From contig CAZCHE010000011.1 in assembly GCA_964498395.1 (NCBI GenBank), forward strand, positions 18,787-82,786: 64,000 bases of DNA. The letters run 5' to 3'. Position numbers and translations under genes: made by a program. This DNA comes from an uncultured Parapedobacter sp. GTDB taxonomy: Bacteria > Bacteroidota > Bacteroidia > Sphingobacteriales > Sphingobacteriaceae. Below the pieces are notes generated by a model. That model was not told where the DNA came from. It ran no database searches and saw nothing but the letters and a program-made list of their open reading frames with translations. Position 1 is the first letter of the stretch. Each line of letters opens with the position of its first letter. Below are positions 1 through 20,012 of this stretch, one piece after another.

Positions 1-98
1 ACTTCAAAGGCAATTACTTCAACCAGTTTGCCGATAAGGTTTTCCGGCAGTTTGATGGTTAAACTGCTCTTCGTCGGTTTTACTATTGTGCGTATCAT
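1..98 (-). CDS. Partial small ORF (N-terminus only, runs off the window edge); antitoxin-like
   Basis: ATG at 98 on the minus strand, open to the window edge. It reads MIRTIVKPTKSSLTIKLPENLIGKLVEVIAFE and resembles small antitoxin-type proteins of Bacteroidota, from memory only. Confidence 0.25.
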   Translation of the reverse strand, partial: MIRTIVKPTKSSLTIKLPENLIGKLVEVIAFE

Positions 99-180
99 GA
101 TAAAGCAAACTCACGAAAAATTACTCGTATATAAAAGCCAGAATGCCGCTCTTACATAAGCTCTCGACTAATTATTCTGA

Positions 181-1530
181 TCATACTCCGGATTCCGCTG
201 GAAGCACATGAGTTTTACGGGTACTGAGTTTACCTTTGTACTTGCGGTGGGCACTGTCTTTTAGGATCGTAGAAGCATATACCTCCATCTTTTCGTCCTT
301 TAACGCCGTTATGTCAAAGGTTATGCTTTCCAGTTTGCTATGTTCAAAGAGGCTGCTGTTTAAGTAGGGTATATGTTCAAATTTCGTTACGTATTTCGAA
401 TGTCTTTCAGTTGTAGGCTTTGCCAAAGCCGAAAAGAATAAATCGTTTAGTTCATCAAACCCATCTATAAAATCAATGTTTAGAAATCTGTAAGCCGGTA
501 AGTTATTGTTATAGGTTAACAGTTGCGATTCCAATAACTTAAGAAATAGAATACGGTTTACCCACGTAAGGCATAACTCAAGACCTACAGTAAATGATTT
601 GTTGCCATCATTCGGCACATCTCGTACACGATTTAAGTAGTCCTTATCTTCCAAGGTGAAGATGGTGTTTTCAATTAGCGAACCATAATCCCTTTCTTCG
701 GCCTTCTTTCGTTGGATTATTCGTTTGGAGCCGTCTTTGACTTCCTCAAGACCGATGATATGAAGTAGTTCGTTGTAGAACTCTTTGTTGAGTTGATTAC
801 TGTCGTTTCCGAAGCTTTTCCCCAGCAAGTGTACATCAGAGAATAGTTTGTAGATATTCACCAGCTCACGCTCTTTGATATCCGAAACATTTTTGCCACG
901 GAAATCTACGTATACAAACGGAAGTTTTTCTTTTATTGATTCGATATAAGTTGAAGCAATTTCCCGGTAAAAAAGTTCATTCTTTGAAGTGTCTTTCAAG
1001 CCATCGCGAAACCGCTCATATTCTTTCACCAAGGATTTATTCTTGTAGAAAAGTTCATAAAAATCTTCTCCCTTGAAAAAAAACCACTCCATCCCATTGG
1101 TAATGATGAGGTGCTTGATATTATTGTTTTTTAGGTCAATACGTTCGCGAAGATAATACAAAAGCAATTCCTGTAGAGCCTTTTTATTCAAGTTAGTTGT
1201 GATCGGAAATTCCGCCCTATTGCTAGGGCGCTTTGCTTCAATGATCACTCCTACATTGGTGGTAACGTCTTTGCCGAGGTAGATGGCTAGGTCTATACGT
1301 TCTTTGGTGTTGATCTCATGTTTACTGTAAAATGTATCTTCGAGTAACCGCTTAATTGGCGACTTAAGATGCTCTTCACTTTCGTTTTTTTTGTCGATAA
1401 TTTTGATAGTGGCAATGCAACTTTCAAGTTTGTTAATAAAGTCGTCGATATCCTTGCGTAGCGGCTTAAACTTTTTGTATGCTGGGTTTATGGCCTTGCG
1501 TAGGTCTATTTGGTTTATGGGTTTAGACAT
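181..1530 (-). CDS. Type IIG/IIL-like restriction-modification enzyme, N-terminal nuclease plus helical linker only (probably truncated)
   Basis: PD-(D/E)xK-like signature (DLAIY...VIIEAKRP). IPYLNSSLFE matches the (I/V)PY(F/L)NGGLFE linker motif of MmeI/Eco57I-type enzymes. The ORF stops where the methyltransferase domain should begin, and no methylase motifs follow in any frame of 1-180. Confidence 0.5.
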   Translation of the reverse strand: MSKPINQIDLRKAINPAYKKFKPLRKDIDDFINKLESCIATIKIIDKKNESEEHLKSPIKRLLEDTFYSKHEINTKERIDLAIYLGKDVTTNVGVIIEAKRPSNRAEFPITTNLNKKALQELLLYYLRERIDLKNNNIKHLIITNGMEWFFFKGEDFYELFYKNKSLVKEYERFRDGLKDTSKNELFYREIASTYIESIKEKLPFVYVDFRGKNVSDIKERELVNIYKLFSDVHLLGKSFGNDSNQLNKEFYNELLHIIGLEEVKDGSKRIIQRKKAEERDYGSLIENTIFTLEDKDYLNRVRDVPNDGNKSFTVGLELCLTWVNRILFLKLLESQLLTYNNNLPAYRFLNIDFIDGFDELNDLFFSALAKPTTERHSKYVTKFEHIPYLNSSLFEHSKLESITFDITALKDEKMEVYASTILKDSAHRKYKGKLSTRKTHVLPAESGV

Positions 1531-1733
1531 TACCTAAATTTTAATGCTGCTTTTAGTAACTAAAGTTGTTCCATATTTTTCTCCGAAAAAGGAGCGTTGC
1601 TAATCAAAAGTGATGCTATGACAACGAAAGCGAATTGAATTCCTCAACTCATTTCAAAAAGCCCAAGATACTACAATTGTATTAAATTAGCTAAATGGAG
1701 TTTAGCCACTAATCTAGCATTAAGGTCACTGAT

Positions 1734-2639
1734 TTGGTTGTGCTGACCATTCATTTTTTGCTCCTTCAGGCTGAAATCCATATATTTACTGCCACTAACT
1801 GCTTTTGCCTTTTGCTGCCGCCAAGAGTATCCATATCATCCATAAGCCGTGCCATAGATACAGGTGGGAGTAGACCTGTGGTCGTCATGGCAGACGATTT
1901 CGAAGAGTACCTTTGTAAATACGATTCCAGTAGCAAGCTGATCAATGAGTACTGCGCACTTTGTTTTCTTGATGCTTGGGAGATTCGTCATTTGCCGGGC
2001 GCTTTCGTGAAAATACAGGCAGATCATATCAATCCTGAGGTTATCTCAAGCCGGACACAACCGCACCATTTCGGTAAACCTACTTTCGGACTGCGTTATC
2101 ACAATGATGTGATGGACGTGTCGAACTTGCTAGTAGGTCTCAAATCGGACTATCATGAGCTCAATAAATACAGAAGCAGAAGCACGTTGTTGAAAATCGC
2201 ATTGTTTGACCTCTGGCTCGCCAACACCGATAGGAGTGTTAATAATTATAATCTCTTGCTGCAACCCGAGGGCGATGGTTTTCAAATCATTCCCATAGAC
2301 CACAGCGAAATTTTTGATGGCTGTCGATTAGGACAGCAGCTTGCACAACTAACGCCCGAGGATAGTATCTTATACGCTGATTTGGCGCACGTTTTGTTGT
2401 ACAACCCCAAGAAAATAGCCGAGGAAGCCAATAGGATATTGGATAACTTTCCTACCTTTGTATCAAATTGCGGTAATGTGTTGTCTAATATCATTGCCGG
2501 AGTGCCAGATGAATGGTGCGCCAATAAACAGCGATTAGAGCAGCAAATCCGAGAAGCGGTAATCGAAGACCAGGGTTGGTTGGCTGATACCGCGACCAAT
2601 TTTAAAGAGTTGGTTGCAACACTGACAAGAGGAGCATGA
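1734..2639 (+). CDS. HipA-like serine/threonine kinase family protein (start uncertain, possibly TTG at 1812)
   Basis: GGSRPVVV...EYLCKY N-terminal pattern and the LWLANTDRSVNNYNLL...IPIDHSEIF catalytic-loop pattern are typical of the HipA C-terminal kinase fold. There is no in-frame ATG upstream of the conserved region. Confidence 0.55.
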   Translation: MVVLTIHFLLLQAEIHIFTATNCFCLLLPPRVSISSISRAIDTGGSRPVVVMADDFEEYLCKYDSSSKLINEYCALCFLDAWEIRHLPGAFVKIQADHINPEVISSRTQPHHFGKPTFGLRYHNDVMDVSNLLVGLKSDYHELNKYRSRSTLLKIALFDLWLANTDRSVNNYNLLLQPEGDGFQIIPIDHSEIFDGCRLGQQLAQLTPEDSILYADLAHVLLYNPKKIAEEANRILDNFPTFVSNCGNVLSNIIAGVPDEWCANKQRLEQQIREAVIEDQGWLADTATNFKELVATLTRGA

Positions 2640-3463
2640 TGAAGACATTTTATTCCATCCTGTATTGCAGTATTCGTCCTAATCAGGACGAACGCATTAC
2701 CATTGGCCTGTTCATGGCCGATGGTGTCAAGTGTTATTTTGCCTATACAGCAGATAAGTTGAATGCCATCAAAGACCTATTGCCCGAAGGGGCGTACCAG
2801 CTAGTTAAGTCAAATTTGCGTTCTATTGAACAACTCGCGGCTTCTTGCCAGTCTGATATACTCAAAGCACATTCAGGGCAACGCTTTTTAAGCGAAAGTT
2901 ATTTGGACTACCTGTCGGTATACGCAAACAATTTGCTTACGTTTTCCAAACCCGTGTCGCTAGATGTGCCGCTAGATGAAGCCACGTTCAATAAGCTGTT
3001 TGAAAAGTTTGTTTTTGCCCTGCCGAGGCGGCAACCGAAGGAACACGATTACATTATTCAAGCAAGACGGCGTTTGGTCAAATCAATCGGCGAACATGTT
3101 AATTTTGATGTCGAGCTGACGGAAAAAGACGTAGCAGGACTGATTGTTCCTTCGAAGGTGGCGTTTATCGGCAAGAATGATGTGAAAGTGGTAGGGGAAC
3201 TAAGCGATTTCAGCAAGGCCCTCCATGTGCTAAAACCCCAGATTGGCGCACATTTGTTTTTGGTAGATACCATTAGGCAGCAAGAAAAGGGTGCTAAATT
3301 TTTCTTCATAGGCGATGAACCTTCCAAGAAATTAAAGGACCACCACGATATATGGAAAAACCTGAAAGCCTACAAGCCTATCCAACTGGTACCCACGGAT
3401 GAGGTGCAACAGATCGAGGAATATGTAGCTCTTCATGGAGTAGAGCCGTATATGGCTGTTTAA
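2636..3463 (+). CDS. DUF3037-like protein
   Basis: The N-terminus FYSILYCSIRPNQDERITIGLFMADG fits the DUF3037 pattern (Y..RY.P....EF.NVG). It overlaps the kinase stop by ATGA, suggesting translational coupling. From memory, DUF3037 usually sits next to HipA-like kinases. Confidence 0.5.
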   Translation: MMKTFYSILYCSIRPNQDERITIGLFMADGVKCYFAYTADKLNAIKDLLPEGAYQLVKSNLRSIEQLAASCQSDILKAHSGQRFLSESYLDYLSVYANNLLTFSKPVSLDVPLDEATFNKLFEKFVFALPRRQPKEHDYIIQARRRLVKSIGEHVNFDVELTEKDVAGLIVPSKVAFIGKNDVKVVGELSDFSKALHVLKPQIGAHLFLVDTIRQQEKGAKFFFIGDEPSKKLKDHHDIWKNLKAYKPIQLVPTDEVQQIEEYVALHGVEPYMAV

Positions 3464-3501
3464 TGGCTGTAAAAAAAGCGATGTCCGAATTCTTGGGGGC
3501 G

Positions 3502-3690
3502 TTACAATGCCAAGTATTTTCGTCTTAATTCTCTTGCAAGGCCCTCAAGATCTGGAAAGATAGATGATTCGCTAAACCCTGCCTTTTCAAGTTCCATTGA
3601 AATTTTGGAGCGGTATTTTCTATCTATTATTATTTGAACAATATTGTTATTCCTATGTCGCCGATACACGGAATCTATAGCCAGTTTTTA
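3502..3690 (-). pseudogene. C-terminal remnant of an FRG-domain protein
   Basis: The minus-strand frame has no usable start and reads KLAIDSVYRRHRNNNIVQIIIDRKYRSKISMELEKAGFSESSIFPDLEGLARELRRKYLAL*. The ending (I)FPDLEGLA..L is the characteristic C-terminus of FRG-domain proteins. Confidence 0.45.
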
Positions 3691-3907
3691 AAATAGTTGC
3701 TTAGGAGAAAAAGCGATAAAAATACATGCTTACTTCAGGCCTAGGTCGCATTGATTAGGTTAAAGGTATGAACTAATCCGTTGAAATCCAAAAGCGATGA
3801 TATCAATTATGCGTGACAGAATTCCTTAAGGGTTACGCTTGTTTTGAATAGACTGAACAGCTCCATCATTTGGCCGTAACTTTTTTTATCCGTATATTCG
3901 GACTAGG

Positions 3908-4150
3908 TTTAGGTAAAAAGCCCCCAATCCCCAAGTGGGCGACATTGTTTTCATCAACATGATTATTAATTTCTTGTCTGCTTTCATCGGCATTAATGAA
4001 TGCTTCGCAGTTTGTTCTTTAACGGCGACGAAGCTTGCCTGCCTACCGCAGGCAGGCATGAGCAGTTTACAGCAGTAGCTCATGCAGGTTCATAGGAGAC
4101 GTATAAAATACCCTAGTCTGTTTTTCATAAACGGGGGCGGTTATTTTTAT
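3908..4150 (+). repeat. Two-hairpin intergenic repeat, copy 1 (interrupted by an insertion at 3955-4093)
   Basis: 3908-3954 plus 4094-4150 align at about 80 percent identity to 5828-5935 (aggtaRaaagcccccWatccc...ggggcgacat..ttttcat|aggagaYg...ccYag..tgtttttcat...ggttatttt). Confidence 0.7.
3955..4093 (+). mobile_element. MITE-like ~135-bp insertion flanked by a TTCAT duplication
   Basis: This segment is absent from the uninterrupted repeat copy at 5828-5935. TTCAT occurs at 3950-3954 and 4089-4093. The right 60 bp (4030-4089) is a GC-rich palindromic element that recurs in inverted orientation at about 26586-26686. Confidence 0.55.
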
Positions 4151-4191
4151 GCTATTCTTGTAATCTTTCTGGTAAATTAGGTTCAGTGAAC

Positions 4192-4632
4192 TCATGCCAC
4201 CTCAATCTCCGGGTTTAATTTTATCAGCTCCGCAATAAAGCTTAACTTATCTTTCGGCGATATGACAACGCTGTCAAATCTGTTGTAAAAGATTTCGAGC
4301 CGATCCAGCGAAGGGGCAGGAGCGCTAATCGGGTTTTTGGTTTCCTTGATTTTCTTAATGGAGGCGATAGCTATTTTCTTCTTGTATAAAACGCCTGAGT
4401 GAACGACCAGTTCATCGCCATCAATGGCATAATAGGTAGCTAAGAATAAGTGAATGCAAAATGCCGTTACCATAAGCATGAATAAGGTGGCGCCCCATCC
4501 AGTAGCCACCGCTGCGGTATCCGTTTCCGTGATGGCCATATAGATCAGCGGCAGCGTGCTGCCCAACATGATTGCCACAACCGGAATGAGGAGTACCAGG
4601 TCTATTTTCGCTTTATATTTTTGCATGCGCAA
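4192..4632 (-). CDS. Membrane protein with bacterial PH (bPH/YdbS-like) domain
   Basis: Two N-terminal TM helices are followed by YYAIDGDELVVHSGVLYKKKIAIASIKKI...LDRLEIFY, which is typical of bPH-domain proteins. Confidence 0.55.
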   Translation of the reverse strand: MRMQKYKAKIDLVLLIPVVAIMLGSTLPLIYMAITETDTAAVATGWGATLFMLMVTAFCIHLFLATYYAIDGDELVVHSGVLYKKKIAIASIKKIKETKNPISAPAPSLDRLEIFYNRFDSVVISPKDKLSFIAELIKLNPEIEVA

Positions 4633-4846
4633 CTAAGATACAAAATAATTGACAGGAGGCTATTACTCACCACTTCATATTGGACGTCAAATTTTGAATA
4701 TTATTTCGGGAAACCCACTCAGAGCCGATTATAAGCGGATATAAACGTTTAAAAACGGCTACGATTTGCTAATAAAAATAGTTTTAATCATGTTTGCCCT
4801 GTTGATTGATACTAAAATAAATCACTGTGAAAAAAAGCGATTGATT

Positions 4847-5773
4847 ATGGCAAAAAAATACGACTATTTGTGGAAAGGTATCGTGGAAGACCTCTTTGAA
4901 TACCTGTTGCGCTTCCTGTACCCCACTGCCGATAAGGTCTTCGACCTAGCTAAAGGTGCAACTTTTTTGGATGCCGAGCTGGAACAGTTATTCCCTCCGG
5001 AAGGTGACGAATACACCCCAAAGGTAGTGGACAAACTGGTGAAGCTGTACAGGCGTGATGGCAGGGAAGAATGGGTGCTATTGCATATAGAGGTGCAGGG
5101 TCAATACAGGCAGGATTTTGCCAGACGGATGCTTACCTACTATACACGGATATTGGATAAGTATGACCGTCCCATCACGGCATATGCAATCCTCACGGAA
5201 GGAAGCAAGAAACCCCGGCCAAGCAGTTACGAGCGGTCGTTCCTTGGCACGAGATTGCTATACGAGTACAATATATTCAAGATTGCCGAGCAGGATGACG
5301 AACAGCTGTATGCTGACGGGAATCCGTTTGCTTTGGCGGTACTGGTTGCTAAGACCGCATTTATCGGGAAGCATATCGAAAACCGGCACGATCGCGACCT
5401 CGCGCTGCTGGAAACCAAAAGACGGCTGATGCAAGCCATGCTTGGTAGGGACATCCCAAAAGACAAAATCAGGTCATTGATTATCTTTCTGACCTACTAC
5501 GTGAATTTTGAATTCAAGGAAACAAACAGTATATTTGAAATGGAAAAACAACAACTGACAGGAGGCAGTGATACCATGGGTATTGAGCAATTATTAATTG
5601 AGACGGAAAAAAAGCGCAGCGAGCAAAGGGGCATAGAAAAAGGAAAAGCCGATGTGGTCGAAAATCTATTAATGAAGCTAGGCTTGTCCGATGAGCAAGC
5701 TGCCGATGTAGCCGAAGTATCCATCGATTTCGTCCGCAAGATTCGTGCGGATTTGGCGAAGAAAAAGAAATAA
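4847..5773 (+). CDS. Rpn-family recombination-promoting nuclease / putative transposase (PD-(D/E)xK, YhgA-like)
   Basis: YDYLWKGIVEDLFEYLLRF...VDKLVKLYRRDGREEWVLLHIEVQGQ...YYTRILDKYDRPITAYAILT matches the Rpn/PDDEXK-transposase-like pattern. ATG at 4847 is preferred over the longer ORF start at 4766. Confidence 0.65.
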   Translation: MAKKYDYLWKGIVEDLFEYLLRFLYPTADKVFDLAKGATFLDAELEQLFPPEGDEYTPKVVDKLVKLYRRDGREEWVLLHIEVQGQYRQDFARRMLTYYTRILDKYDRPITAYAILTEGSKKPRPSSYERSFLGTRLLYEYNIFKIAEQDDEQLYADGNPFALAVLVAKTAFIGKHIENRHDRDLALLETKRRLMQAMLGRDIPKDKIRSLIIFLTYYVNFEFKETNSIFEMEKQQLTGGSDTMGIEQLLIETEKKRSEQRGIEKGKADVVENLLMKLGLSDEQAADVAEVSIDFVRKIRADLAKKKK

Positions 5774-5800
5774 CCTCATAGAGTATATTAAGATAACGAA

Positions 5801-5827
5801 GTCACCGCATGGTGGCTTTTTTTATTT
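5801..5827 (+). terminator. Intrinsic terminator after the Rpn-like gene
   Basis: gtcacc-gcat-ggtggc stem followed by a T-run (ttttttta), 28 nt after the stop codon. Confidence 0.55.
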
Positions 5828-5935
5828 TCCTAATTAGGTAGAAAGCCCCCTATCCCAAAAAGGGGCGACATCTTTTCATAGGAGATGAATACCCCAGCTT
5901 GTTTTTCATGGCGAGCTGGGGTTATTTTTTGATTT
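5828..5935 (+). repeat. Two-hairpin intergenic repeat, copy 2 (intact)
   Basis: Homologous to 3908-3954 plus 4094-4150. It contains hairpins gcccc/ggggc and ccccagct/agctgggg (5892-5921), the latter followed by ttattttttg. Confidence 0.7.
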
Positions 5936-6071
5936 GTTTTAGCGAATGTAGGTTAATAGAAAAACAAACCCCGCGTAAGCGGGGATGTTTGAGACTTTTG
6001 AAATCCCAGACTTTAAGTCTGTTGTGTAGTGGTGCAAAGATATGTGTAGAGTCTTTACATTAAAAATCAAT

Positions 6072-6105
6072 ATAAAAAAATAACCCCGGTGTTGCAGTAC
6101 CGGGG
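6072..6105 (-). terminator. Intrinsic terminator downstream of the 471-aa gene
   Basis: On the minus strand a ccccggt/accgggg stem is followed by ttattttttta. A second minus-strand hairpin plus T-run lies at about 5965-5992. Confidence 0.5.
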
Positions 6106-6237
6106 TGCCCATTTCGCGGACTGGGCGATTTATAATTAAGTGCGAACCGTTATGCTGTAACGCTTATTGTTGTGTACGGATATAAGTGAAGGACTACATA
6201 ACGGTGTGTTTTTACACAATATCTATATCAATCACAA

Positions 6238-7653
6238 TTAAAATTTGACTAAACCTAACTCTTCCAATCGTATCGCCATAGCGCCTGGCGACACATTAAA
6301 AACTTCAGACAGGGAGTTGAAGTTAGCCCTAGCATAAGATTTTGTGGTAGCAATCTTTTTTGCGAATTCATAAATATTTCTACATTCCTTCCGCAAGTGA
6401 CTTGCAGAACGTTGGATTAGATTGAAGGCGGTCTCCTCATTTATGGTTAGTTCATTTGTTAGGAAAAGTTCATTAAAAACTCTGGTAACCTGCTTTCGTG
6501 GCATTAGAAAGTAGCTCGCGAATTTATCAGCTTGGCGCTCTATCGGTGCTCTGGGCATTTTCGGACTGCTACCGTCAATTGGTTTGTCCCGATGAATCAC
6601 AAGATCTTTGTGGAGGATGGCATGGCCTAATTCATGTGCAGCCGTGAAATTCCGTACAGATTGTGATTGACTCCCAGATATTAGTACAAGATGAGTGTCT
6701 TGATCAATGTAACCTGCTACCTCGGACATAACTCCATCCACTTCACTTATTCCTATTTCTTCAATGGTTAGAAAATCGTAGGATAATATTTCCTGGAAGA
6801 TTTTTTCGGGGTTTAGGATTGACAAGGCATCTTTAGCATCGAAATTTTTGCCCCATATTCTCTCGCTGTAATTCCATACTAACCGCTGAAATTGGGTGGC
6901 TATATCTTCTATCTCACTGTCTGATATGACTTCTTTTGATTTAGCGAGGCTAGTAAGAGCATGGATTTCCTGATATATATCTGCATTTTTATTGCTTTCA
7001 TTTTTTAATGATAATAAGTTATCATCTGATTTGCTATAGTATGGCTGCAATCGCTGGCTGAGGTTTGAAAGTTGGTTTTTTATCGTGATCGTCCAATCGT
7101 AGTCAGGCGCGCCAAATTGCTTTAGATTTAGATATATTATGGCAATGCAACTTTTCGTCGCGGAAATTACTCCATCGAAAGCGACAAAAGAATCACCTCT
7201 AACGGCACGATAGCCTTTGTCAAAGACCACCTCGCCAATTTCAATTAGCCTTAAGCATAATAGCGCGATTTTTAATGGGATTTCAGTTGAGAGTTTCGTT
7301 AGTTCCTGAGCATGTCTCTTAAGTTCATTTTTGAGAACGGGATCCTTCTCGATATCTCTTTCTTTCTTAATTGCAATGTTTTTATCGAAAACATCAGAAT
7401 CCTCTTCAAATAGGTCTTGGAGCTGAGGTAAGATTCTTAACACAATTTCTTCTTCAAACGCAAGAAACCGTTGTCGAACACCTTCGTAACCCTTTCTGCC
7501 TTTTTTCGTTGTCAACTTGATTACAGTAATAAGCAGATTTGCGGATAACATACCTTGTAAGGCAGCCGCACTTCCTGATCCTGGCGTAGGATTTCCAGCT
7601 CCAAATTCTTTTAAAAGTTCAGCTACTGAATATTCTAGTAATTTTTTTGCCAT
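6238..7653 (-). CDS. Fusion protein: N-terminal cyclodeaminase-like (FTCD_C-type) helical domain plus C-terminal ImmA/IrrE (M78, DUF955) zinc metallopeptidase
   Basis: The N-terminus ELLKEFGAGNPTPGSGSAAALQGMLSANLLITVIKLT matches the FTCD C-terminal cyclodeaminase signature (S..P.PGGGSAAAL.GAL). The C-terminus FTAAHELGHAILH...ERQADKFASYFLMP is the ImmA/IrrE HEXXH plus downstream acidic-motif pattern. Confidence 0.6.
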   Translation of the reverse strand: MAKKLLEYSVAELLKEFGAGNPTPGSGSAAALQGMLSANLLITVIKLTTKKGRKGYEGVRQRFLAFEEEIVLRILPQLQDLFEEDSDVFDKNIAIKKERDIEKDPVLKNELKRHAQELTKLSTEIPLKIALLCLRLIEIGEVVFDKGYRAVRGDSFVAFDGVISATKSCIAIIYLNLKQFGAPDYDWTITIKNQLSNLSQRLQPYYSKSDDNLLSLKNESNKNADIYQEIHALTSLAKSKEVISDSEIEDIATQFQRLVWNYSERIWGKNFDAKDALSILNPEKIFQEILSYDFLTIEEIGISEVDGVMSEVAGYIDQDTHLVLISGSQSQSVRNFTAAHELGHAILHKDLVIHRDKPIDGSSPKMPRAPIERQADKFASYFLMPRKQVTRVFNELFLTNELTINEETAFNLIQRSASHLRKECRNIYEFAKKIATTKSYARANFNSLSEVFNVSPGAMAIRLEELGLVKF

Positions 7654-7735
7654 ATTCGATTTGTATTATATCATCTAATTTACAGATGGTTATAAGACAA
7701 ATGTGCATTTTTTAAGTTGGGGATACTACTATTTG

Positions 7736-7762
7736 TTATCCACATGACGTTAATTATCCACA
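7736..7762. promoter_or_regulatory. Two perfect TTATCCACA 9-mers (DnaA-box consensus) in direct orientation
   Basis: TTATCCACA at 7736-7744 and 7754-7762, 18 bp start to start. They lie in the 168-bp spacer between the HNH gene end and the start of the cyclodeaminase-ImmA gene. Confidence 0.5.
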
Positions 7763-7821
7763 AAGATTTTTTAGGGTAACCTTTTGCGCATTTAGTCCGG
7801 CTAAACCTTAAAAAGAGATTG

Positions 7822-8535
7822 TTACAATTTAAATAATTGAAGTTGCCCCTCTATTTTTCTTCTAGTCACTTTATCAGAAGTAGGATATGGTATTTCTATT
7901 ATGCACCAAACTGTATTATGGATATGAAAAATCATTGTCAATTTGTTTCCCCTTCGCCAATCTCTAACTACTATATATGAAAATACATTGTTCTGTATAT
8001 GAGTCCATTTTTTCAATCTAAACTTTTCGCTATATGTTAACATAAATATTTCAGCAGGTCTTGTTTCTTCGACTGTAAAGGGATAAAACCCCACACAATT
8101 AAAAGTAGATAAGCTTGGCACTTTTTTGTATTTGTGATAATATAAGCCTAGGGCATTTTTTTCAATTACTTTTTTTATTCGATTTTTTTCAACTCTGAAA
8201 TATACTCTTCCATTTTCATCTTGAATTAATGAATTTTCTATTCGGTCGTTAAGTTTTTTTGAACGTTTCCGTGCTTTGTAAACGGAGCCTCCATACTCCT
8301 TCCGTGCCAAAAGGTTAGGGTTGTCTGATATTTCAACTAGTACATTTAAAAAATATTCTTCATCAAGAGAGAAAGATTGATTACAATCTTTACACGCAGG
8401 TATAGTTAGCAAATTTTGGGGATAAGGTTTTTCCAACAAATTTTTTGATGGGATATGGTCTTTAGAGTTTGCTGGTTTCCCGCAATAATAACAATTGAAT
8501 TCCTTTTTCAATTTTTCACAAAAATTTACTGCCAA
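7822..8535 (-). CDS. HNH-type endonuclease domain protein with an uncharacterised C-terminal domain (TTG start)
   Basis: CYYCGKPANSKDHIPSKNLL...IPACKDCNQSF is a CxxC...H...CxxCN HNH zinc-finger-type arrangement. The only start upstream of the motif is TTG at 8535, with an in-frame TGA 7 codons further upstream. Confidence 0.5.
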   Translation of the reverse strand: MAVNFCEKLKKEFNCYYCGKPANSKDHIPSKNLLEKPYPQNLLTIPACKDCNQSFSLDEEYFLNVLVEISDNPNLLARKEYGGSVYKARKRSKKLNDRIENSLIQDENGRVYFRVEKNRIKKVIEKNALGLYYHKYKKVPSLSTFNCVGFYPFTVEETRPAEIFMLTYSEKFRLKKWTHIQNNVFSYIVVRDWRRGNKLTMIFHIHNTVWCIIEIPYPTSDKVTRRKIEGQLQLFKL

Positions 8536-8670
8536 CTCGCACCGATGCCCTCCAGAACATCAGTGCGAGTGGTGTCAGAAAGATATATCCGGGCAATTCA
8601 TCCGAGTAATTCTCAAATTTGGGTTTTTCAAGCCATTATTTCTTAGAATGGGGAGACAACAGCAGGGTGT

Positions 8671-9129
8671 TTAATCGGCTTCTTCTTCCCTAAGACCGTC
8701 CAGAATGGACTTTGGGTCGAATATCGGAAGATAATATTTGTTTATAAAGGCTCCTGCTGTCTTGGCAATAATGATTCCCCGGGCTGAAGAAATAGATATT
8801 CCCAATAAAGTGGCCAGCACATTGTCCGGCAATTTGAAACTACGTTCTTTTATTTCGATGTTCTCTTTTAGGTTATTGATAATAAACTCAAACGCCCCTT
8901 TGTAGGTTAGCAGCTTGACTGGGGGATTTTGTCCGTCATTGTAATCGTAAAAGAAATGCAGGTGTACGATGAACGACTCTTTTTCGATATCATGCGAGAA
9001 GTTGACACCAACGCCTACTTCAAGATTATCTTCGCTAAATTTTTCGATAAACACGTCATCGGGCTCCTTAAATGTTACCTCTTCGGTTTTAACGTGGTGT
9101 AATTTGACATATATTGCAGGCTTGCCCAT
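8671..9129 (-). CDS. SecB-like chaperone (third component of a TAC system)
   Basis: The 152-aa protein is collinear by eye with E. coli SecB. [22 protein letters not shown] matches [32 protein letters not shown] matches [46 protein letters not shown] matches [33 protein letters not shown]. Confidence 0.5.
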   Translation of the reverse strand: [152 protein letters not shown]

Positions 9130-9133
9130 GATA

Positions 9134-9595
9134 TTAATTATAGCAGAACTCTATTGCGTTTTTTGAATGGCTCTCGGAGGGGTCAATCGCATAGCCTTTA
9201 AACTGTGCGAATTTGAAATTTTTAGAAATCTCCGTATCTAGTCTAGCATATTGTTGGTGGATGCCCATCACAATCCCCAAATAGGCCACGTCGGAAAACT
9301 TCGCTTCTTGTTCCAATCCAAAGCGATCTTCATTAATATGCCTACGAATATCTTTGTATGCGAGTATAGGCACTTTGTCAAAAGCCAAAGCTAATTCCAC
9401 CAACTTGCTTACCTTATGGTCAAAGTCACCGTTTAGGATTTGGGTGATATATCCTTTTGATACGCCAAGTTTTTCAGCAAGCTGCGTACGGTTGAGTTTG
9501 TTTTTGGCCATGTATTCGTTGATTAATTCAAACAAATCCAACTGGATTTTAGTCGTCCAATATTCCTTGCTCCTTAATAGTTCTTCCCTTTTCAT
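9134..9595 (-). CDS. higA: XRE-family HTH antitoxin (HigA-like) with a C-terminal extension
   Basis: LNRTQLAEKLGVSKGYITQILNG is an HTH_XRE motif. About 60 extra residues follow the HTH, and only a 4-nt gap separates it from the upstream toxin gene. Confidence 0.65.
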   Translation of the reverse strand: MKREELLRSKEYWTTKIQLDLFELINEYMAKNKLNRTQLAEKLGVSKGYITQILNGDFDHKVSKLVELALAFDKVPILAYKDIRRHINEDRFGLEQEAKFSDVAYLGIVMGIHQQYARLDTEISKNFKFAQFKGYAIDPSESHSKNAIEFCYN

Positions 9596-9599
9596 GTAT

Positions 9600-9989
9600 C
9601 TATTTGATATCTAAAACTTTAACTAATTCTTTCTTTATCGATCTGAATCGATTAATGTCTTTTTCTTGATTGTTCTTAAAGCCACACAACACGATTATTT
9701 TTCCTCCCTTTTGATGAACGGCATATATTCGCAAATGTTTGCTCTTAAACTCATATTCCTTTATGCCGTCTTTTACCCCTTTGAGTTCCCGAAATTTGGT
9801 TTGGGGCAACGGTTTGTTATTCGCTACAAACTCCATATAGGTGAGCATTGTCCTGAACTCACTTAAATAGGAAGTACCTGCAAGTTCCTCTTCAAATGTA
9901 TCAAGCTGTTTCACACCATTAATTTCCACTTGGCAAAATATCTGTTTGCCTTTTATGGCCTCGATTTCATGGAGTACAAATTTAGGCAT
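9600..9989 (-). CDS. higB: RelE/ParE-superfamily toxin (HigB / Gp49-like)
   Basis: FRELKGVKDGIKEYEFKSKHLRIYAVHQKGGKIIVLCGFKNNQEKD matches the Gp49/HigB pattern (..l.g..gl.E.r....yRi.y.....ivll.gf.K). Confidence 0.65.
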   Translation of the reverse strand: MPKFVLHEIEAIKGKQIFCQVEINGVKQLDTFEEELAGTSYLSEFRTMLTYMEFVANNKPLPQTKFRELKGVKDGIKEYEFKSKHLRIYAVHQKGGKIIVLCGFKNNQEKDINRFRSIKKELVKVLDIK

Positions 9990-10049
9990 AATTTGTTTAG
10001 TTGTAGCTAAACTTTCGATTTTTACAATTTGCTTACTTTATTGCAGTGT

Positions 10050-11009
10050 TTAAAATGGTAAATCATCGTCATCAGAGTATACAACGTTTTCTGCTGAATA
10101 TTTAGCCCAGTCATCGTTCCAGTCTGTTTTTCGATAAAATTTTAGCTTCCCATCTTCGTCAAAAATATTGCTATTAATGGATAGCAAATAGACTTTGTTA
10201 TTCTGTGTTCTTTTAAATTCCTGGATATCTTCAAACGGTAGTGAGTCGCTTTCATAACCATAAGCTTTCATAAATGCGGCTAAATCCTCCAAAGCCTCCA
10301 CATAGAAATTATATCTGATATTCAAGGACGATTTTATAAACTCGGTAAGAGGGTGTGTTACCATAAGGATTCTGTTAATTTCTTCGGCTTGATCCTTATT
10401 CTCAGCACTTAGATAATTTACTAGCTTGTTCAACGTTTGTGCTGTTTTCTCTAATCCTTTTATAAGATTCACTTCTTGAACCCTAGATTGCTCCTGTAGA
10501 AATCTTTGGAATAAACCAGCCAATTGCTCTTTCAGATATTTAGTGATGTCTGAGACGGTATCGAACCCTTTGATGTTGTTATTGACACTTAAGGTCTTAA
10601 TATCTTCAATGAAAGTGTAAATCCTGTTGTCATCGACATATCGATAAGTAACATCGGCATCTTTGTTTAACAAATACGTTTCATATTCAGACAAGACATG
10701 GCTTTCGATGAATATATATACTTGTTTATTAGTTTCTAAAGCGGCCTTTATTTCAGCTTGGGATACAGAAGAGTCATGTTTCTTTGATTCAGAGCCATAC
10801 CTTCCACCAATGATGGCAACCAATATGTCTACACTCTCAATCTCTTTATAGCAATAAGCTTCAAGCGCATCGTCCTTTCCGTAGGGTATATCTCCCTCTT
10901 CATTTCTTACAGGTTCGTAGCCTAATTGATCCAAAAATAAATCAAGGTCAGCCCTCGTCTGTTTTAAGTCGTAAAAAGTTGAGCTAATAAATACTCTTGG
11001 TTTAGCCAT
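10050..11009 (-). CDS. DUF4062 domain protein (TIR-like/nucleoside deoxyribosyltransferase-like N-terminal fold) with an unknown C-terminal half
   Basis: The N-terminus PRVFISSTFYDLKQTRADLDLFLDQLGYEPV...VDILVAIIGGRYG is the DUF4062 signature. Confidence 0.6.
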   Translation of the reverse strand: MAKPRVFISSTFYDLKQTRADLDLFLDQLGYEPVRNEEGDIPYGKDDALEAYCYKEIESVDILVAIIGGRYGSESKKHDSSVSQAEIKAALETNKQVYIFIESHVLSEYETYLLNKDADVTYRYVDDNRIYTFIEDIKTLSVNNNIKGFDTVSDITKYLKEQLAGLFQRFLQEQSRVQEVNLIKGLEKTAQTLNKLVNYLSAENKDQAEEINRILMVTHPLTEFIKSSLNIRYNFYVEALEDLAAFMKAYGYESDSLPFEDIQEFKRTQNNKVYLLSINSNIFDEDGKLKFYRKTDWNDDWAKYSAENVVYSDDDDLPF

Positions 11010-11276
11010 TTCAAATTAATCTACTTATCTATTACTCTTTAACTCTTTCATCAAAGATACAATTTTTAGCATTGTTGGTAGATGTTTATTTTGAAATACG
11101 AATCCATTTTTCTACACAGTAAGGTTAAAAGTTGATAAGTTCTTATTTGCGAAACACTACGATTTCCGTAGTAAATCTCTAACAAAGACTAAAAACCTAG
11201 GCTATACCTACCAGATCCCGGCTTATAACCATTGTCAAATGCGAGACGGATGCGCTATGTTGGGGTAGAAGAGTAG

Positions 11277-12647
11277 TCATAGCTCGTCTATAACCTTATT
11301 AGCCAAATCGTTTAAAAAAGTTATAGGGTCTTTAGTCCTATTACCATCTTTGTAAAACAAAAGATCCATCAATTTTTTATTATCCATTATTTCGTCAACC
11401 AACTGTACGAAATAAGACAGATTATCGTTTAGAGCTTGTTTATTTTTATTTGTAATTTGTGGGTAATTCGTTGGATTTAAATTTACATAATAGCTATGCA
11501 TGTGAAATTGCCGAACAAAAAGAAGCGCTGCATATTTACTTATCCAATATTTAATATTGCCATCTGCACCGACCCCTTCCAAGTCGGGAAAAGGAAATTG
11601 AAAGGAAATGACTGGAATATTATAATCGTAAGGATCCCAGAACCACAAAAAAGCTTCGAATACCTCATCCATGGTTGTCGGCAATAATTTATACCTTGGT
11701 GGATATGACATCGTATAGTTAAATATGGTTCTGATTAGAGAGTATTCATTACTGTAAAGCAGCAATCCGCCCAACGCATAATGAAATTCGAAGAATATTC
11801 TTCTCTCTAGTTCTCTGCTTTTAACCTCTTTCTCATTTATGCATTTGTTTTGTTCATCGAATTCTTGTGAAAGCTGGGAAAGATGTGGGTCAATATATTG
11901 AAAGGCAATTTTCCAATACAATAAAACTAAATCAGGACGCTTTCGACTTAAAGCTAATGTCAATCCTTCCCAAAGCACTCTGTATGTAGTTTTGCTTATT
12001 TTATGATAACTATCCCCTAACAACCATTCTCCCCCAAAAACCATATACTGAAGATTAACATTATTATATTTGGGCTGATTGGAAATTAAGAACTGTAAAT
12101 CATATATCATACGATATAAAAGTTCATCATATACGAGTTCCTCATGTTTCTTGATATTGTTGGATTTTCTACAGTCTTTGAATAGATTCGTGAACCAACC
12201 AAGCAATTCGTTGCAGACAAAGCTAGAATCATGCTTAACCCCGTAATATAATAAATCTCTTAACTCAGAGAATAGTAGCTCGGATTTTGAGCGATTCAGC
12301 AAATATGACTTCAATTTACCCGGACTGTAGTAACTGAATATTGCTTCAGCAAAAAGCAAGAAAGAAAAAACCGTTACAATAGAGCTTAGAAGCAAACTCC
12401 AAATAACACTGTGAACAACATTTACACTGAAGCCAAAAACATTTCTTAATGAATATATAGCTATTATTGTTAATGCAAACCACAAGCTATATCGAAAGAA
12501 CTTCCATGCCCATTCTTTTTCAAAGAGATTTCTTATGGCTTCAGAAGAATACTTGTCGTCAATTCTGGCAATAACTTGTATAGATATTGGATATGCTATA
12601 CCCGTCAATGCGATAATAATAGGAATACAAATCTCAGGTATGGTCAT
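11277..12647 (-). CDS. Multi-pass membrane protein (3-4 N-terminal TM helices) with a ~350-aa cytoplasmic domain of unknown function
   Basis: Hydrophobic segments ICIPIIIALTGIAYPISIQVIA, LWFALTIIAIYSL and VIWSLLLSSIVTVFSFLLFAEAIF. I do not recognise any family for the remainder. Confidence 0.5.
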   Translation of the reverse strand: MTIPEICIPIIIALTGIAYPISIQVIARIDDKYSSEAIRNLFEKEWAWKFFRYSLWFALTIIAIYSLRNVFGFSVNVVHSVIWSLLLSSIVTVFSFLLFAEAIFSYYSPGKLKSYLLNRSKSELLFSELRDLLYYGVKHDSSFVCNELLGWFTNLFKDCRKSNNIKKHEELVYDELLYRMIYDLQFLISNQPKYNNVNLQYMVFGGEWLLGDSYHKISKTTYRVLWEGLTLALSRKRPDLVLLYWKIAFQYIDPHLSQLSQEFDEQNKCINEKEVKSRELERRIFFEFHYALGGLLLYSNEYSLIRTIFNYTMSYPPRYKLLPTTMDEVFEAFLWFWDPYDYNIPVISFQFPFPDLEGVGADGNIKYWISKYAALLFVRQFHMHSYYVNLNPTNYPQITNKNKQALNDNLSYFVQLVDEIMDNKKLMDLLFYKDGNRTKDPITFLNDLANKVIDEL

Positions 12648-12690
12648 TGAAATAATTTCATGATGAATAGAATCGCCGAACTAAAAAAAC

Positions 12691-13242
12691 TTATCTCAAC
12701 CTATACAAATACACCGAACCATTACCAAATTTATCGGCTCTTTGAAGAACGCCTTTTAAGTAAAGACGTCTAAGTTCTCTCGACAACTCTTGACTATCGA
12801 GGTCTCGTTTATATTGCTTAAGGCTGTATTCGGCAATTTCGCCAACGGTATGCCCTTCATCTGAAATAAATGAATCGGATAGCAATACATTACGGACAAA
12901 ACTAGCAACGCTATACTCACTTCTTCTATTGATAAAGAACTTTGCATTTTTTTGGTTTTCTTCATAGAACTTTTGGATGGTTGGAATTTTAAGCGGCGCT
13001 TTTAGAGCGATTGCCTTATTCATATATAGCCTTGCAATCTCGATTCCAAAGAAGTCAGCAATTTTCTTTGCCAACTTTGGAGAAATATTAGCTGCTCCCC
13101 TTTCAATCATGAGCGTGTAACTGATAGAAATTGATAGCGCAAAAGTTAGTCCTTCAATTGTCAAGCCCGCTTTAACCCTTAGGTGTTTAACGTTTTTACC
13201 AACTATAATTGGTACGTTTTCATTTCTTTCTGATACATCCAT
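12691..13242 (-). CDS. XRE-family HTH transcriptional regulator with a C-terminal winged-helix-like domain
   Basis: VKHLRVKAGLTIEGLTFALSISISYTLMIERGAANISPKLAKKIADFFG is an HTH_XRE motif. It lies 43 bp upstream of the membrane-protein gene on the same strand. Confidence 0.6.
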   Translation of the reverse strand: MDVSERNENVPIIVGKNVKHLRVKAGLTIEGLTFALSISISYTLMIERGAANISPKLAKKIADFFGIEIARLYMNKAIALKAPLKIPTIQKFYEENQKNAKFFINRRSEYSVASFVRNVLLSDSFISDEGHTVGEIAEYSLKQYKRDLDSQELSRELRRLYLKGVLQRADKFGNGSVYLYRLR

Positions 13243-13459
13243 TTACAAATGGACAATCAAATTTGTGTTCATTTTAAAGAATATTGTTTGTTTTTTTGAA
13301 AACACTTTTTTATCTTAGTCCCCATAAAACAAAGTAATTAGATATAGAGAAAATTTAACAGTATAGTTAAGAACAGTATTAACGAACCCTCGTAACAGAA
13401 ATCCGCTAAATTTCATCCTACGAGTGTGAGTATTGCGCCAAAGTCCTATCTTTGGATAC

Positions 13460-13632
13460 CTTATTTCCTAGGGTAGGGTTGGCGCTTGCTTATTCTTTGT
13501 AGGATTATTTGGTTCTTCGGAATCGATAAGGCTGAAAGCTGACCCTAGGCAGCAAGTAAGCCGAGGCCCTTAGCGGAGCCTCTGTTGCAAAGATAAGTAG
13601 GTAGCCAGCCCCCCTCTTTGAGGGTTTTTGTA
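13460..13632 (+). ncRNA. Candidate structured small RNA (family not recognised)
   Basis: A GC-richer patch in AT-rich spacer. It has long-range pairing cctagggt (13467-13474) with accctagg (13542-13549), a GGUUC-UUCG-GAAUC tetraloop hairpin (13511-13524), a gaggc/gcctc stem, and a short ccctc/gaggg stem plus T5 at 13612-13629. Confidence 0.2.
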
Positions 13633-13867
13633 AAGTTATCTATTTGGTTCGTTACTAACCGTAGCGAACAATGCAACTACAGAAAATAACTACCGGAATT
13701 AAATCCATCTCGACTTATCCAAATAGGGGGGAAGATGGTTTTGTGGCATCTAAACCGTGGGAAATCTCTACTGCAAACCTTCATAAAAACATCATCAAAG
13801 TGCCAGTTTGATTGGTGTAAGAAACCTGAATAAATTCCATTTTTCTTACACCTAAAATCAAACAACA

Positions 13868-15349
13868 ATGAAGCAAAAAATACGCTTAGGGGATAACTAT
13901 GCCCTGTTATATCGGTTGTCTGCCTACTGGCGCGACCAACTATCGGAGATATTCCGAAAACACAAACGAAAACCATCCAGTCGGAGGCGGTTTCATACCA
14001 AGCCAAAGAACGGGAGGCCGTCATTAGCTTCCCTTAAAGAAAAATCATGTGTGCAGACCCCTGCGAAGGTCCCGGCCCTCCCCGGGCTGGGCCTCGCAAT
14101 GGGGATAATGGCATTTGCATTGTCTGCTTTAAACATCCAGCTGCAAGCGCAGGATACTATAAAGCCCTTGCAAATCGGTGATACCATACCCGAATACGTC
14201 TGGCACTTGCCGCTACAGGTGGTAAACCATCCGGAAGGCAAGGAAACCATTACGCTCAATGACTATCGGGGCAAGCTGATTATACTGGATTTTTGGGCCA
14301 CGTGGTGTGGGAGTTGCATAAAGGCGTTTCCGCTTGTGGATTCCTTGGTACTATTACACCCTGAAATGCAGGTAGTGAAGGTGACGAAGGAAAACCTCGC
14401 CTCGTCACAAATTGAGTGGACATCTGTTATAAACGGCCACCCATTGGCGGAGGTATTCCCTTATCGGATAATTCCGCATTATGTATGGATAAATTCGGCG
14501 GGCGAGCTCCATGCGTTTTCAAAAACCGAACAACTTACATCATCCAACATCATCGACGCGCTAAACAATGAATCGCCAAATTTTACCGTCGTCAAGGATC
14601 TAAACGTCAAAATCGATAAGCCACTATTCCTTACAGAGGATTTCCAATCGGAAGGGCTGCAACATTATGCTGTGCTGTATAAAGGCAAATACGACGGGTT
14701 GGGAAGTGTGAGCCTATTCCGTAAGTCAGGCGATAAACTTACTGGGAGGACATTGGCGAACCGCCCACTGTATGACCTATATACCACTGTCGCCAGAGGT
14801 TTGTTGGAAAAGGAAGGACAGGCATTTGGTTTAAACCGAATCGTAACTGAGGTTAATGATAGTACAGGGCTCGCTATCCAACGGTCTTCAGTGACCCCTG
14901 ATAACCTGTACTCATACGACATCAGCGTTGCCCCTGAAAACGCGGGCCAATTGTTTGAGATTATGCTGGATGATCTCAACAGGCACACGCAATACCATGG
15001 CACAATCGAATGTCGTGTGCTGGATTGTTTTGTGTTGAAATTAACGGGAGATGAAGACAAGCTGGCCAGTAAAGGTGGTCCTGCCAGTTCAACGTTGAGG
15101 GTGAATACACCCATCTCGCTTAACAACTATCCGCTGCGTTACCTGGCTATTTTTCTGAATTCTTATAGCCAATTGCCGCATATTGTGCTGAATGAAACTG
15201 GGTATGAAGACCCTGTTGATATCCAACTGCAGCAGTTTACAACCGTAGACGATTTCAATAAACAGCTCAAAAAGTATGGGCTAGCCTTAGAAAAAGCCAG
15301 CCGATCAATCCCCATGTTCATCATCCGAGACAAATTACCTAACCGTTAA
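13868..15349 (+). CDS. TlpA-like thiol-disulfide oxidoreductase fused to a TIGR03435/DUF3738-like C-terminal domain (start uncertain; alternative ATG at 14099)
   Basis: LIILDFWATWCGSCIKAFP is a thioredoxin-fold CxxC motif. The C-terminus VLNETGYEDPVDIQL...LKKYGLALEKASRSIPMFIIRD resembles the TIGR03435 end pattern. Confidence 0.7.
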   Translation: MKQKIRLGDNYALLYRLSAYWRDQLSEIFRKHKRKPSSRRRFHTKPKNGRPSLASLKEKSCVQTPAKVPALPGLGLAMGIMAFALSALNIQLQAQDTIKPLQIGDTIPEYVWHLPLQVVNHPEGKETITLNDYRGKLIILDFWATWCGSCIKAFPLVDSLVLLHPEMQVVKVTKENLASSQIEWTSVINGHPLAEVFPYRIIPHYVWINSAGELHAFSKTEQLTSSNIIDALNNESPNFTVVKDLNVKIDKPLFLTEDFQSEGLQHYAVLYKGKYDGLGSVSLFRKSGDKLTGRTLANRPLYDLYTTVARGLLEKEGQAFGLNRIVTEVNDSTGLAIQRSSVTPDNLYSYDISVAPENAGQLFEIMLDDLNRHTQYHGTIECRVLDCFVLKLTGDEDKLASKGGPASSTLRVNTPISLNNYPLRYLAIFLNSYSQLPHIVLNETGYEDPVDIQLQQFTTVDDFNKQLKKYGLALEKASRSIPMFIIRDKLPNR

Positions 15350-15369
15350 CCAATACCTTAAAATCAATT

Positions 15370-18570: not shown

Positions 18571-18580
18571 CTAAATCAAA

Positions 18581-19948: not shown

Positions 19949-19959
19949 TCGTTAAAAAA

Positions 19960-19990
19960 GAAGGGTTTATTGAACTTCAATAAACCCTTC
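19960..19990. terminator. Bidirectional hairpin terminator between convergent genes
   Basis: gaagggtttattgaa-c-ttcaataaacccttc is a near-perfect 31-nt palindrome flanked by A6 upstream and TTT downstream. Confidence 0.75.
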
Positions 19991-20012
19991 TTTCAGTTAC
20001 AAACTTGCCTGC

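Follow-up and report, generated by a model that had tools for sequence, protein, structure and literature searches.

An FTCD_C-like domain fused to an ImmA/IrrE-type metalloprotease in Parapedobacter and its relatives: a self-contained mobile gene and candidate sensor protease

The ImmA/IrrE/CapP proteases couple DNA damage to the induction of prophages and mobile elements, to radiation resistance and to CBASS immunity, and their substrates are XRE-type regulators: ImmA cleaves ImmR, IrrE cleaves DdrO and CapP cleaves CapH. To our knowledge, those M78 relatives that have been characterised (ImmA, IrrE, CapP) all have a regulatory role and act by cleaving repressors, and every studied protease of this group is encoded beside its repressor substrate. 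Here we describe a variant on this sensor-protease theme: a fusion of an N-terminal FTCD_C-like domain to an ImmA/IrrE-type (M78) metalloprotease, encoded in a stretch of 64,000 nt of the Parapedobacter contig CAZCHE010000011.1. This whole stretch is referred to below as the window, and residue numbers are those of the 471-aa fusion protein. The gene and the parts of its product are as follows, with positions given in the window.

6238..7653, minus strand: gene for the FTCD_C-like::ImmA/IrrE (M78) fusion, an open reading frame (ORF) of 471 aa with an ATG start and both Pfam domains above gathering score.
7111..7653, minus strand: N-terminal FTCD_C-like all-helical domain, residues 1-181 (Pfam, FchA structure 7vg4, Foldseek).
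6940..7110, minus strand: single long connecting helix, residues 182-238 (DSSP on the structure model; predicted local distance difference test score, pLDDT, above 90).
6454..6921, minus strand: ImmA/IrrE/CapP-type zinc metalloprotease core, residues 245-400, comprising a beta-sheet subdomain and the catalytic helix pair (Pfam M78, PADLOC and fold matches).
6622..6636, minus strand: HELGH zinc-binding and catalytic motif with H340, E341 and H344 (invariant in homologue alignments).
6538-6540, minus strand: E372, candidate third zinc ligand (likewise invariant).
6241..6453, minus strand: C-terminal helical domain, residues 401-471 (model and alignments).
7654..7774, minus strand: upstream region travelling with the gene, with a putative promoter and a TGGATAA direct repeat (homology with L096, the closest relative of the fusion).
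6083..6106, minus strand: terminator-like GC hairpin with a T run behind it, some 130 bp 3' of the fusion stop codon (8 pairs, 6 of them GC).

The N-terminal domain (residues 9-181) matches the Pfam FTCD_C profile with an E-value of 2.7e-24 (86.3 bits against a gathering score of 24.5), and among solved structures its sequence recovers the methenyl-tetrahydrofolate (methenyl-THF) cyclohydrolase FchA (7vg4, E 1e-10) and TM1560 (1o5h). On the NCBIfam equivalog model for FchA (NF045657) the protein reaches only 65 bits against a cut-off of 275; judged by its sequence, it is a divergent FTCD_C member that is no orthologue of an annotated enzyme. An AlphaFold2 model of the fusion, built on 83 homologues (pLDDT 89.6; predicted template-modelling score, pTM, 0.73), resolves an all-helical region (1-181), one long helix of 57 residues (182-238), a beta-sheet and helical protease core (245-400) and a terminal helical segment (401-471). 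In Foldseek searches the first of these matched 7vg4 and 1o5h with template-modelling (TM) scores of 0.88 and 0.86, respectively, and also the cyclodeaminase-bearing rat FTCD (1tt9). Residues P24-G-S-G-S28, D85, F89, P126, R152-G153 and N176 are invariant in the 83 homologues, and most of these are shared with FchA in a pairwise alignment. Thus, the fusion resembles FchA and the FTCD cyclodeaminase domain in its all-helical fold, in the PGxGxAAA loop and in several conserved core residues, and differs from them in its sub-threshold equivalog score, its R152-G153-D154 motif, the attached protease and the absence of a metabolic gene context.

The C-terminal part is detected by the Pfam Peptidase_M78 profile (PF06114) at residues 315-404 (E 3.2e-15; 56.5 bits against a gathering score of 22) and retrieves CapP (7t5t) among solved structures (E 1.6e-4). 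By fold, CapP is again the best match other than those to FTCD-type structures (Foldseek E 2.4e-3, probability 1.0, 230 aligned columns), followed by the Deinococcus IrrE (3dti, E 3e-2). The HExxH...E site formed by H340, E341, H344 and E372 is invariant both in an alignment of 25 homologues and in that of 83. The region beyond the core carries a near-invariant C424 and an FxVS..A.A.RLE.L motif, and it belongs to the segment (residues about 240-470) that is matched by relatives of the protease half. The first-pass annotation, which had been made from the letters alone, had read the protein as an FTCD_C-type domain joined to an ImmA/IrrE HEXXH peptidase; this is borne out by Pfam, by the structure matches and by the folds of the model, and the motifs it quoted are present.

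Several features set the fusion apart from the described M78 proteases. With CapP it shares the M78 core, the HExxH motif and downstream glutamate, and an occurrence in defence islands; however, CapP has no N-terminal FTCD_C-like domain and is always found beside its HTH (helix-turn-helix) substrate CapH and a CBASS operon, while the fusion has neither an HTH partner nor a fixed neighbour. Like IrrE/PprI of Deinococcus (3dte/3dti) and ImmA of the element ICEBs1, which are signal-activated M78 proteases, the fusion might by analogy be switched by a signal, and like IrrE it combines the protease with an additional sensor-type domain in one chain. In IrrE, though, this domain is C-terminal and GAF-like, whereas in the fusion it is N-terminal, has the fold of a folate enzyme and is joined by a long helix. 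Moreover, the known substrates of ImmA and IrrE are the XRE repressors ImmR and DdrO, and the ImmR gene is adjacent to that of ImmA. PADLOC profiles hit the M78 part alone, with capP as the best match (E 2.4e-20) and RmrA of RosmerTA also matched (E down to 1e-13), and the NCBIfam spr1629 model scores E 2e-12. The core thus matches many models of RmrA and of the spr1629-family HTH-M78 proteins, with the matches confined to residues about 297-400; those proteins have an N-terminal XRE HTH, in place of which the fusion has the FTCD_C-like domain, and they sit beside a toxin, which it does not.

To find a partner of the fusion we called the ORFs in its neighbourhoods with a simple program and clustered them by BLAST (E<=1e-5). 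Across 53 loci, clustering of the ORFs within 5 kb yielded only antisense artefacts for the full-length family, and in the 33 genome loci no conserved neighbour was found within that distance; the genes up- and downstream differ from locus to locus in size, orientation and distance. When the 117 flanking ORFs of these 33 loci were compared to Pfam and PADLOC, no family occurred in more than four of them: HTH_3 was found in 4/117, and capH-type and TRIP13 matches in 2/117 each. The remaining PADLOC matches are scattered over methyltransferases, IetA, PtuA and LmuB, with at most 2-3 of any one. Neither the Pfam matches of the flanking ORFs nor the annotated loci include folate or histidine-utilisation genes beside a fusion. 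In the window itself, no XRE gene, CapH-type HTH gene or CBASS operon adjoins the fusion. An absent XRE partner had been remarked upon in the first-pass annotation, and this holds for the adjacent genes; the surrounding island does contain two XRE genes (9134-9595 and 12691-13242).

The extent of the mobile unit is apparent from the closest relative of the fusion, L096 (87% identical in amino acids and 92% in nucleotides), where homology to the window is limited to positions 6227-7774, that is, the gene and the 121 bp upstream of it; the hairpin at 6083..6106 lies outside this conserved stretch. In 20 of 26 loci the GC content of the fusion gene is below that of the distant flanks, and one genome carries two paralogues (L011, L018). 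The contexts are mixed: one locus (P0015) has a defence setting with TIR/SEFIR, SLFN AlbA_2, SIR2_2 and SymE, and another (P0050) has CAP12-PCTIR_TIR, while the copies in Kordia and F. alkalisoli lie among ordinary genes. Searches of IMG/VR and of GenBank phages recovered no full-length fusion but only generic M78 cores of up to about 190 residues, at 26-48% identity and without FTCD_C, and an origin of the fusion in phages or prophages was therefore rejected. Taken together, the want of a conserved neighbour, the low GC, the paralogues, the lack of a full-length phage copy and the mixed contexts identify the fusion as an accessory, horizontally mobile and self-contained gene. Its patchy, island-associated distribution is compatible with a role in anti-phage or stress responses.

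The family is not small. A search with the fusion returned 1,249 matching clusters (at 90% identity), and the best 120 of these matches all combine PF04961 with PF06114 in 461-534 aa. The hosts are mostly Bacteroidota, including Flavobacterium, Kordia, Pedobacter, Parapedobacter, Aureibaculum and others, with a few Proteobacteria and Planctomycetota. Database entries bear generic names, either "cyclodeaminase/cyclohydrolase family protein" or "ImmA/IrrE family metallo-endopeptidase", and the former is probably misleading. PADLOC 2.0 holds no description of the family, its M78 part alone being matched, and our searches of a paper library for the FTCD_C/cyclodeaminase and ImmA/IrrE combination, or for Peptidase_M78 in defence islands, found nothing relevant. 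Hence, the family is widespread and already present in databases under generic names, and is functionally uncharacterised as far as these tools tell; that the first-pass annotation did not recognise a described system is in keeping with this.

We then considered the two halves of the fusion where they occur separately, as such contexts might throw light on function. Close relatives of the protease half (residues about 240-471) without FTCD_C were recovered with E-values of 1e-30 to 1e-49 from 19 proteobacterial and other loci, and in 7/19 of these the M78 gene lies directly downstream of a ribonucleotide reductase gene (Ribonuc_red_lgC). The reductase-linked loci (L031, L036, L037, L039, L044, L047, L048), which carry a clade of stand-alone M78 proteases, come from Proteobacteria and an Akkermansiaceae metagenome-assembled genome. 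We know of no description of this linkage. Among the reductases that were checked by Pfam, some are split, with TSCPD encoded by a gene of its own, one has an intein and another an ATP-cone; the intein, in L044, contains a LAGLIDADG domain. The protease-half relative in L037 is fused to a Ser/Thr kinase, and a further relative has genes for a nucleoside transporter and a metalloenzyme-superfamily protein upstream of it.

The N-terminal domain in turn defines a subfamily with the motifs FGAGxxxPGSGSAAA, D85..F89, R152-G153-D154 (within RGDS) and L175-N176 (within LNL), which has 284 representatives at E<=1e-10 in a representative library. About a third of the best 150 of these are stand-alone proteins of 220-290 aa. 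Two others, from unrelated metagenomes, are fusions to dihydrofolate reductase (DHFR::FTCD_C-like; P0339 with 395 aa, and L261:381-1559 with 392 aa); since they are only 36% identical across both domains, this architecture is conserved rather than an assembly artefact. Three further proteins (P0300, P0348, P0354) couple the FTCD_C-like domain through a low-complexity linker to a conserved C-terminal region of about 90 aa, which has no Pfam match and displays the motif ...EEVFAxxFG...WF...FF...LGxFASR..FL.FL.... Two apparently short architectures (P0305, P0245) were discarded as frameshifted fusions.

A survey of 65 loci with stand-alone N-domains, covering 327 kb of flank, revealed three independent groups (L211; L229; L232/L233/L239) in which the N-domain gene is within 1.6 kb of a separate M78 gene. 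As M78 genes are sparse in genomes, we estimate this proximity to be well above chance, on an assumed background density of such genes. In two of the loci (L229, 825-4688; L239, 5995-9770) the M78 gene abuts a gene for an HTH_3-containing protein, which is a 609-aa Pkinase and HTH_3 protein in the former and a 405-aa double-HTH protein, with a DUF4365 gene upstream, in the latter. Such loci look like a split version of the fusion that retains the missing HTH component, and these HTH-M78-N-domain neighbourhoods suggest, by analogy with the described proteases, that the ancestral substrate may have been an XRE-type HTH protein. In Microbulbifer pacificus (L182:6001-8555), defence-type genes coding for GmrSD_N (DUF262) and HEPN (MAE_28990/RiboL-PSP) proteins lie downstream of a stand-alone FTCD_C-like gene and in its orientation.

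From these observations we tentatively favour, at somewhat less than an even chance, the reading that the fusion is an autonomous, horizontally mobile, single-protein sensor protease that is tied to folate or DNA-precursor metabolism and acts on an unlinked target. The DHFR fusions and the linkage to ribonucleotide reductase and to the nucleoside transporter point to nucleotide-precursor metabolism as the process that would be monitored. The N-terminal domain might bind a folate species, or otherwise report the state of the folate/DNA-precursor pathway. The signal would pass along the helix at 182-238, which would serve as a signal-transmitting stalk, probably within a dimer, given that FTCD_C domains dimerise. 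It would then switch on the protease, which could cleave a protein encoded elsewhere; by analogy to the pairs ImmA/ImmR, IrrE/DdrO and CapP/CapH, an XRE-type HTH regulator is the likeliest target. The outcome might be a stress or anti-phage response. In this much, the proposal of the first-pass annotation that a sensor domain drives an ImmA/IrrE protease is still the most reasonable reading.

Several points weigh against such a sensor protease. We infer the ligand, activity and substrate for every member of the family, as we do the activation and the biological role of the fusion itself. The N-terminal domain could serve for dimerisation only, or be an active enzyme rather than a sensor. The adjacent HTH substrate gene, which is the defining partner of ImmA/IrrE proteases, is absent at the fusion loci (HTH_3 being as rare as 4/117), and very divergent small partners could escape surveys of the kind used here. 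The ribonucleotide reductase linkage comes from relatives without the N-domain, and the split-gene and DHFR cases are few, amounting to three independent locus groups and two proteins. Finally, inspection of the loci makes the association with defence islands a partial one, several copies being situated among ordinary genes, as those in Kordia and F. alkalisoli are.

Possible, though unlikely in our estimation, is that the fusion acts as a single-gene abortive-infection protease in the manner of Lit (Peptidase_U49, of the E. coli element e14). In that case the effector would be the M78 domain itself, and detection by the N-terminal domain of phage-induced changes in folate or deoxynucleoside triphosphate metabolism would lead it to cleave an essential protein of the host or phage. 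A solo gene with no linked substrate, its patchy distribution, low GC and cassette-like mobility, and the defence-island location of some copies are all as expected on this account, and one family member (P0119) has a precomputed Peptidase_U49 match. However, the window protein has no such match, the characterised M78 relatives are regulators that cleave repressors, and the split-gene relatives pair M78 with HTH proteins. The comparison is limited to functional analogy, in that a solo zinc metalloprotease could act as a single-gene abortive-infection effector; there is no sequence match to Lit in the window protein, and its activation logic would differ, as the trigger of Lit is the Gol peptide in its complex with EF-Tu.

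It is improbable that the fusion is a promiscuous regulator of the CapP type that controls whichever defence gene happens to adjoin it. This would account for the variable neighbours, for capP and CapP being the foremost PADLOC and non-FTCD fold matches, and for the few loci that are flanked by TRIP13, IetA, PtuA, LmuB or methyltransferases. It is countered by the lack of a CapH-like HTH partner, capH-type proteins being limited to the 2/117 flanking ORFs given above, by the many copies amid ordinary genes, often in convergent orientation, and by the finding that the mobile unit is the gene alone.

We also give little credence to the fusion being a metabolic enzyme, namely a true formimino-THF cyclodeaminase or methenyl-THF cyclohydrolase of one-carbon or histidine metabolism with an appended protease-like domain. 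The retained FTCD_C signature residues (PGxGxAAA, D..F, P, D, N), the annotation of database entries as cyclodeaminase/cyclohydrolase family proteins and the DHFR fusions within the N-domain subfamily would all fit an enzyme. Yet the score on the FchA equivalog is far below its cut-off, folate and histidine-utilisation genes are not among the flanks, the gene is accessory, patchy and low in GC, and the protease site is strictly conserved. We considered, too, that the N-terminal domain might bind 5,10-methenyl-THF as a light-sensing chromophore; nothing bears on this, there being, for example, no photolyase neighbours.

The gene lying upstream of the fusion in the window had suggested to the first-pass annotation a two-gene conflict module, in which the protease would sense a metabolite and license an HNH nuclease effector. 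Although the two genes are on the same strand and 168 bp apart (spacer 7654-7821) with no terminator predicted between them, share an AT-rich island with defence-type genes, and the HNH catalytic motif is conserved, we hold such a module to be very improbable indeed, as none of the 61 other fusion loci encodes a homologue of the HNH protein, no fusion is found near five HNH homologues in four different settings, the closest relatives of each share only the respective gene, and Flavobacterium sp. LB1P62 keeps a fusion and an HNH homologue on different contigs.

The 61 loci are full-length ones, some of them redundant, which total 673 kb with copies of the window excluded; they are equally devoid of homologues of any other island gene. 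Conversely, the fusion was found in 0/7 loci of HNH homologues, so that homologues of the two genes never co-occur in these neighbourhoods. The homology of L096 to the window ends 48 bp short of the stop codon of the HNH gene, and that of the closest HNH relative is limited to 7830-8513. As homology ends at the borders of each gene and the two do not co-occur, each represents an independent single-gene cassette. Their adjacency is a matter of island packing with the HNH gene as an unrelated neighbour. The lack of a predicted terminator in the spacer means that the two may be co-transcribed in this strain. Hence, while the first-pass annotation was right about the two ORFs, which the ORF listing places on the minus strand at the spacing it gave, neither the module nor the licensing of the nuclease stands.

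The HNH gene itself is the following feature.

7822..8535, minus strand: gene for a 237-aa HNH-motif protein, an ORF with a TTG start (homologues and conserved motif).

Its Pfam scores are sub-threshold (HNH_5, 20.2 bits against 27.5; HNH, 15.1 against 21.4). However, C15, C18, H27, N41, C48, C51 and N52 are conserved in 24 homologues, constituting a CxxC..DH..N..CxxCN motif, and in the model (pLDDT 85) this motif maps to a beta-beta-alpha element with strands at 24-28 and 43-47 and a helix at 49-54. A Foldseek search of PDB and BFVD with the whole protein gave no match at E<=1e-3, the 40-residue core being too small to drive one. The C-terminal domain of about 180 aa has no detectable structural relative. 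The identification as an HNH protein thus stands at the level of the motif, on which basis the protein is probably a nuclease of the HNH type whose C-terminal domain is novel. Its family comprises 86 homologue clusters of about 230 aa, all unnamed and limited to Bacteroidota. The five homologues examined cover four settings. One is a mobile element that also encodes RelA_SpoT, a MORC-like ATPase and a Dcm methylase, and another consists of ordinary metabolic genes; the other two are a defence island with SIR2, AAA_15-HNH and HD-CE and a site beside an Exo_endo_phos gene. The family (window 7822-8535, L090-L097) behaves as a solo mobile gene, in defence and mobile-element as well as in ordinary contexts.

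The island that encloses both genes was correctly described as AT-rich and populated by defence-type genes: region 6000-13500 has a GC content of 36% against 49% in the rest of the window, and PADLOC matches are found in it. A search for island boundaries found no tRNA gene in window 1-20000. Upstream of the HNH gene, on the minus strand at 8671-9989, is a tight three-gene operon with 4-bp gaps, which codes for a Gp49/RelE-like toxin (129 aa, weak matches), an XRE HTH protein (153 aa; the gene at 9134-9595) and a 152-aa protein that matches PDC-M64C, a component of a PADLOC candidate system (E 9e-20). The operon, to which this XRE gene belongs, resembles a toxin-antitoxin or defence module of three parts and is separate from the fusion. 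The rest of the island (10050-13242, minus strand) encodes three proteins, one with DUF4062 (319 aa, E 1.4e-17), a multi-pass membrane protein of 456 aa without a family match and a 183-aa XRE HTH protein (12691-13242); no homologue of these three is found near other fusion loci.

Further features are seen on the other side of the fusion. The minus-strand ORF at 181-1530 (449 aa) matches a type IIG restriction-methyltransferase profile (DUF7149 and DUF7814; PADLOC E 5e-79) over no more than the first ~400 of its 1,247 positions, and the gene is either frameshifted or running off the left end of the window. At 1734-3463 on the plus strand, there is a 4-bp overlap between the gene of a HipA_2-type kinase (301 aa, E 4.8e-11) and a 275-aa ORF without a family match, and the two may be a kinase-type toxin pair. 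A bPH_4 membrane protein is encoded at 4192-4632 (minus strand), and a 335-aa ORF at 4766-5773 (plus strand) has a weak match to the Rpn-family recombination-promoting nuclease/transposase (TIGR01784, E 2.5e-4).

These results also correct the logic of annotation, in that an attractive pairing of a protease with a nuclease turns out to be an accident of island packing, and the weight of the fusion lies instead in its unusual sensor-type domain and in a testable link to folate and nucleotides. What emerges is a large, strictly conserved and mainly Bacteroidota family in which the protease lost its linkage to a repressor and gained the domain of a folate one-carbon enzyme. Should the N-terminal domain indeed sense the status of folate or DNA precursors, switches of the ImmA/IrrE class would have an input that is new for them, and the fusion would be a tractable single-gene system in which to study how bacteria notice that their metabolism is being taken over. 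A more far-reaching possibility, which we consider distinctly unlikely, is that the family is an immune or stress sensor of a new class that works as a single protein. It would monitor the folate/thymidylate pathway directly, through a recruited folate-enzyme domain, and would respond by cleaving an unlinked regulator or an essential protein. Among the events that it would detect could be the takeover of metabolism by a phage DHFR, thymidylate synthase or hydroxymethylase, or antifolate or thymine starvation. Were this so, the ribonucleotide reductase-linked M78 proteases, and the N-domains that stand alone or are fused to DHFR, would belong to one wider and undescribed network for the surveillance of nucleotide precursors.

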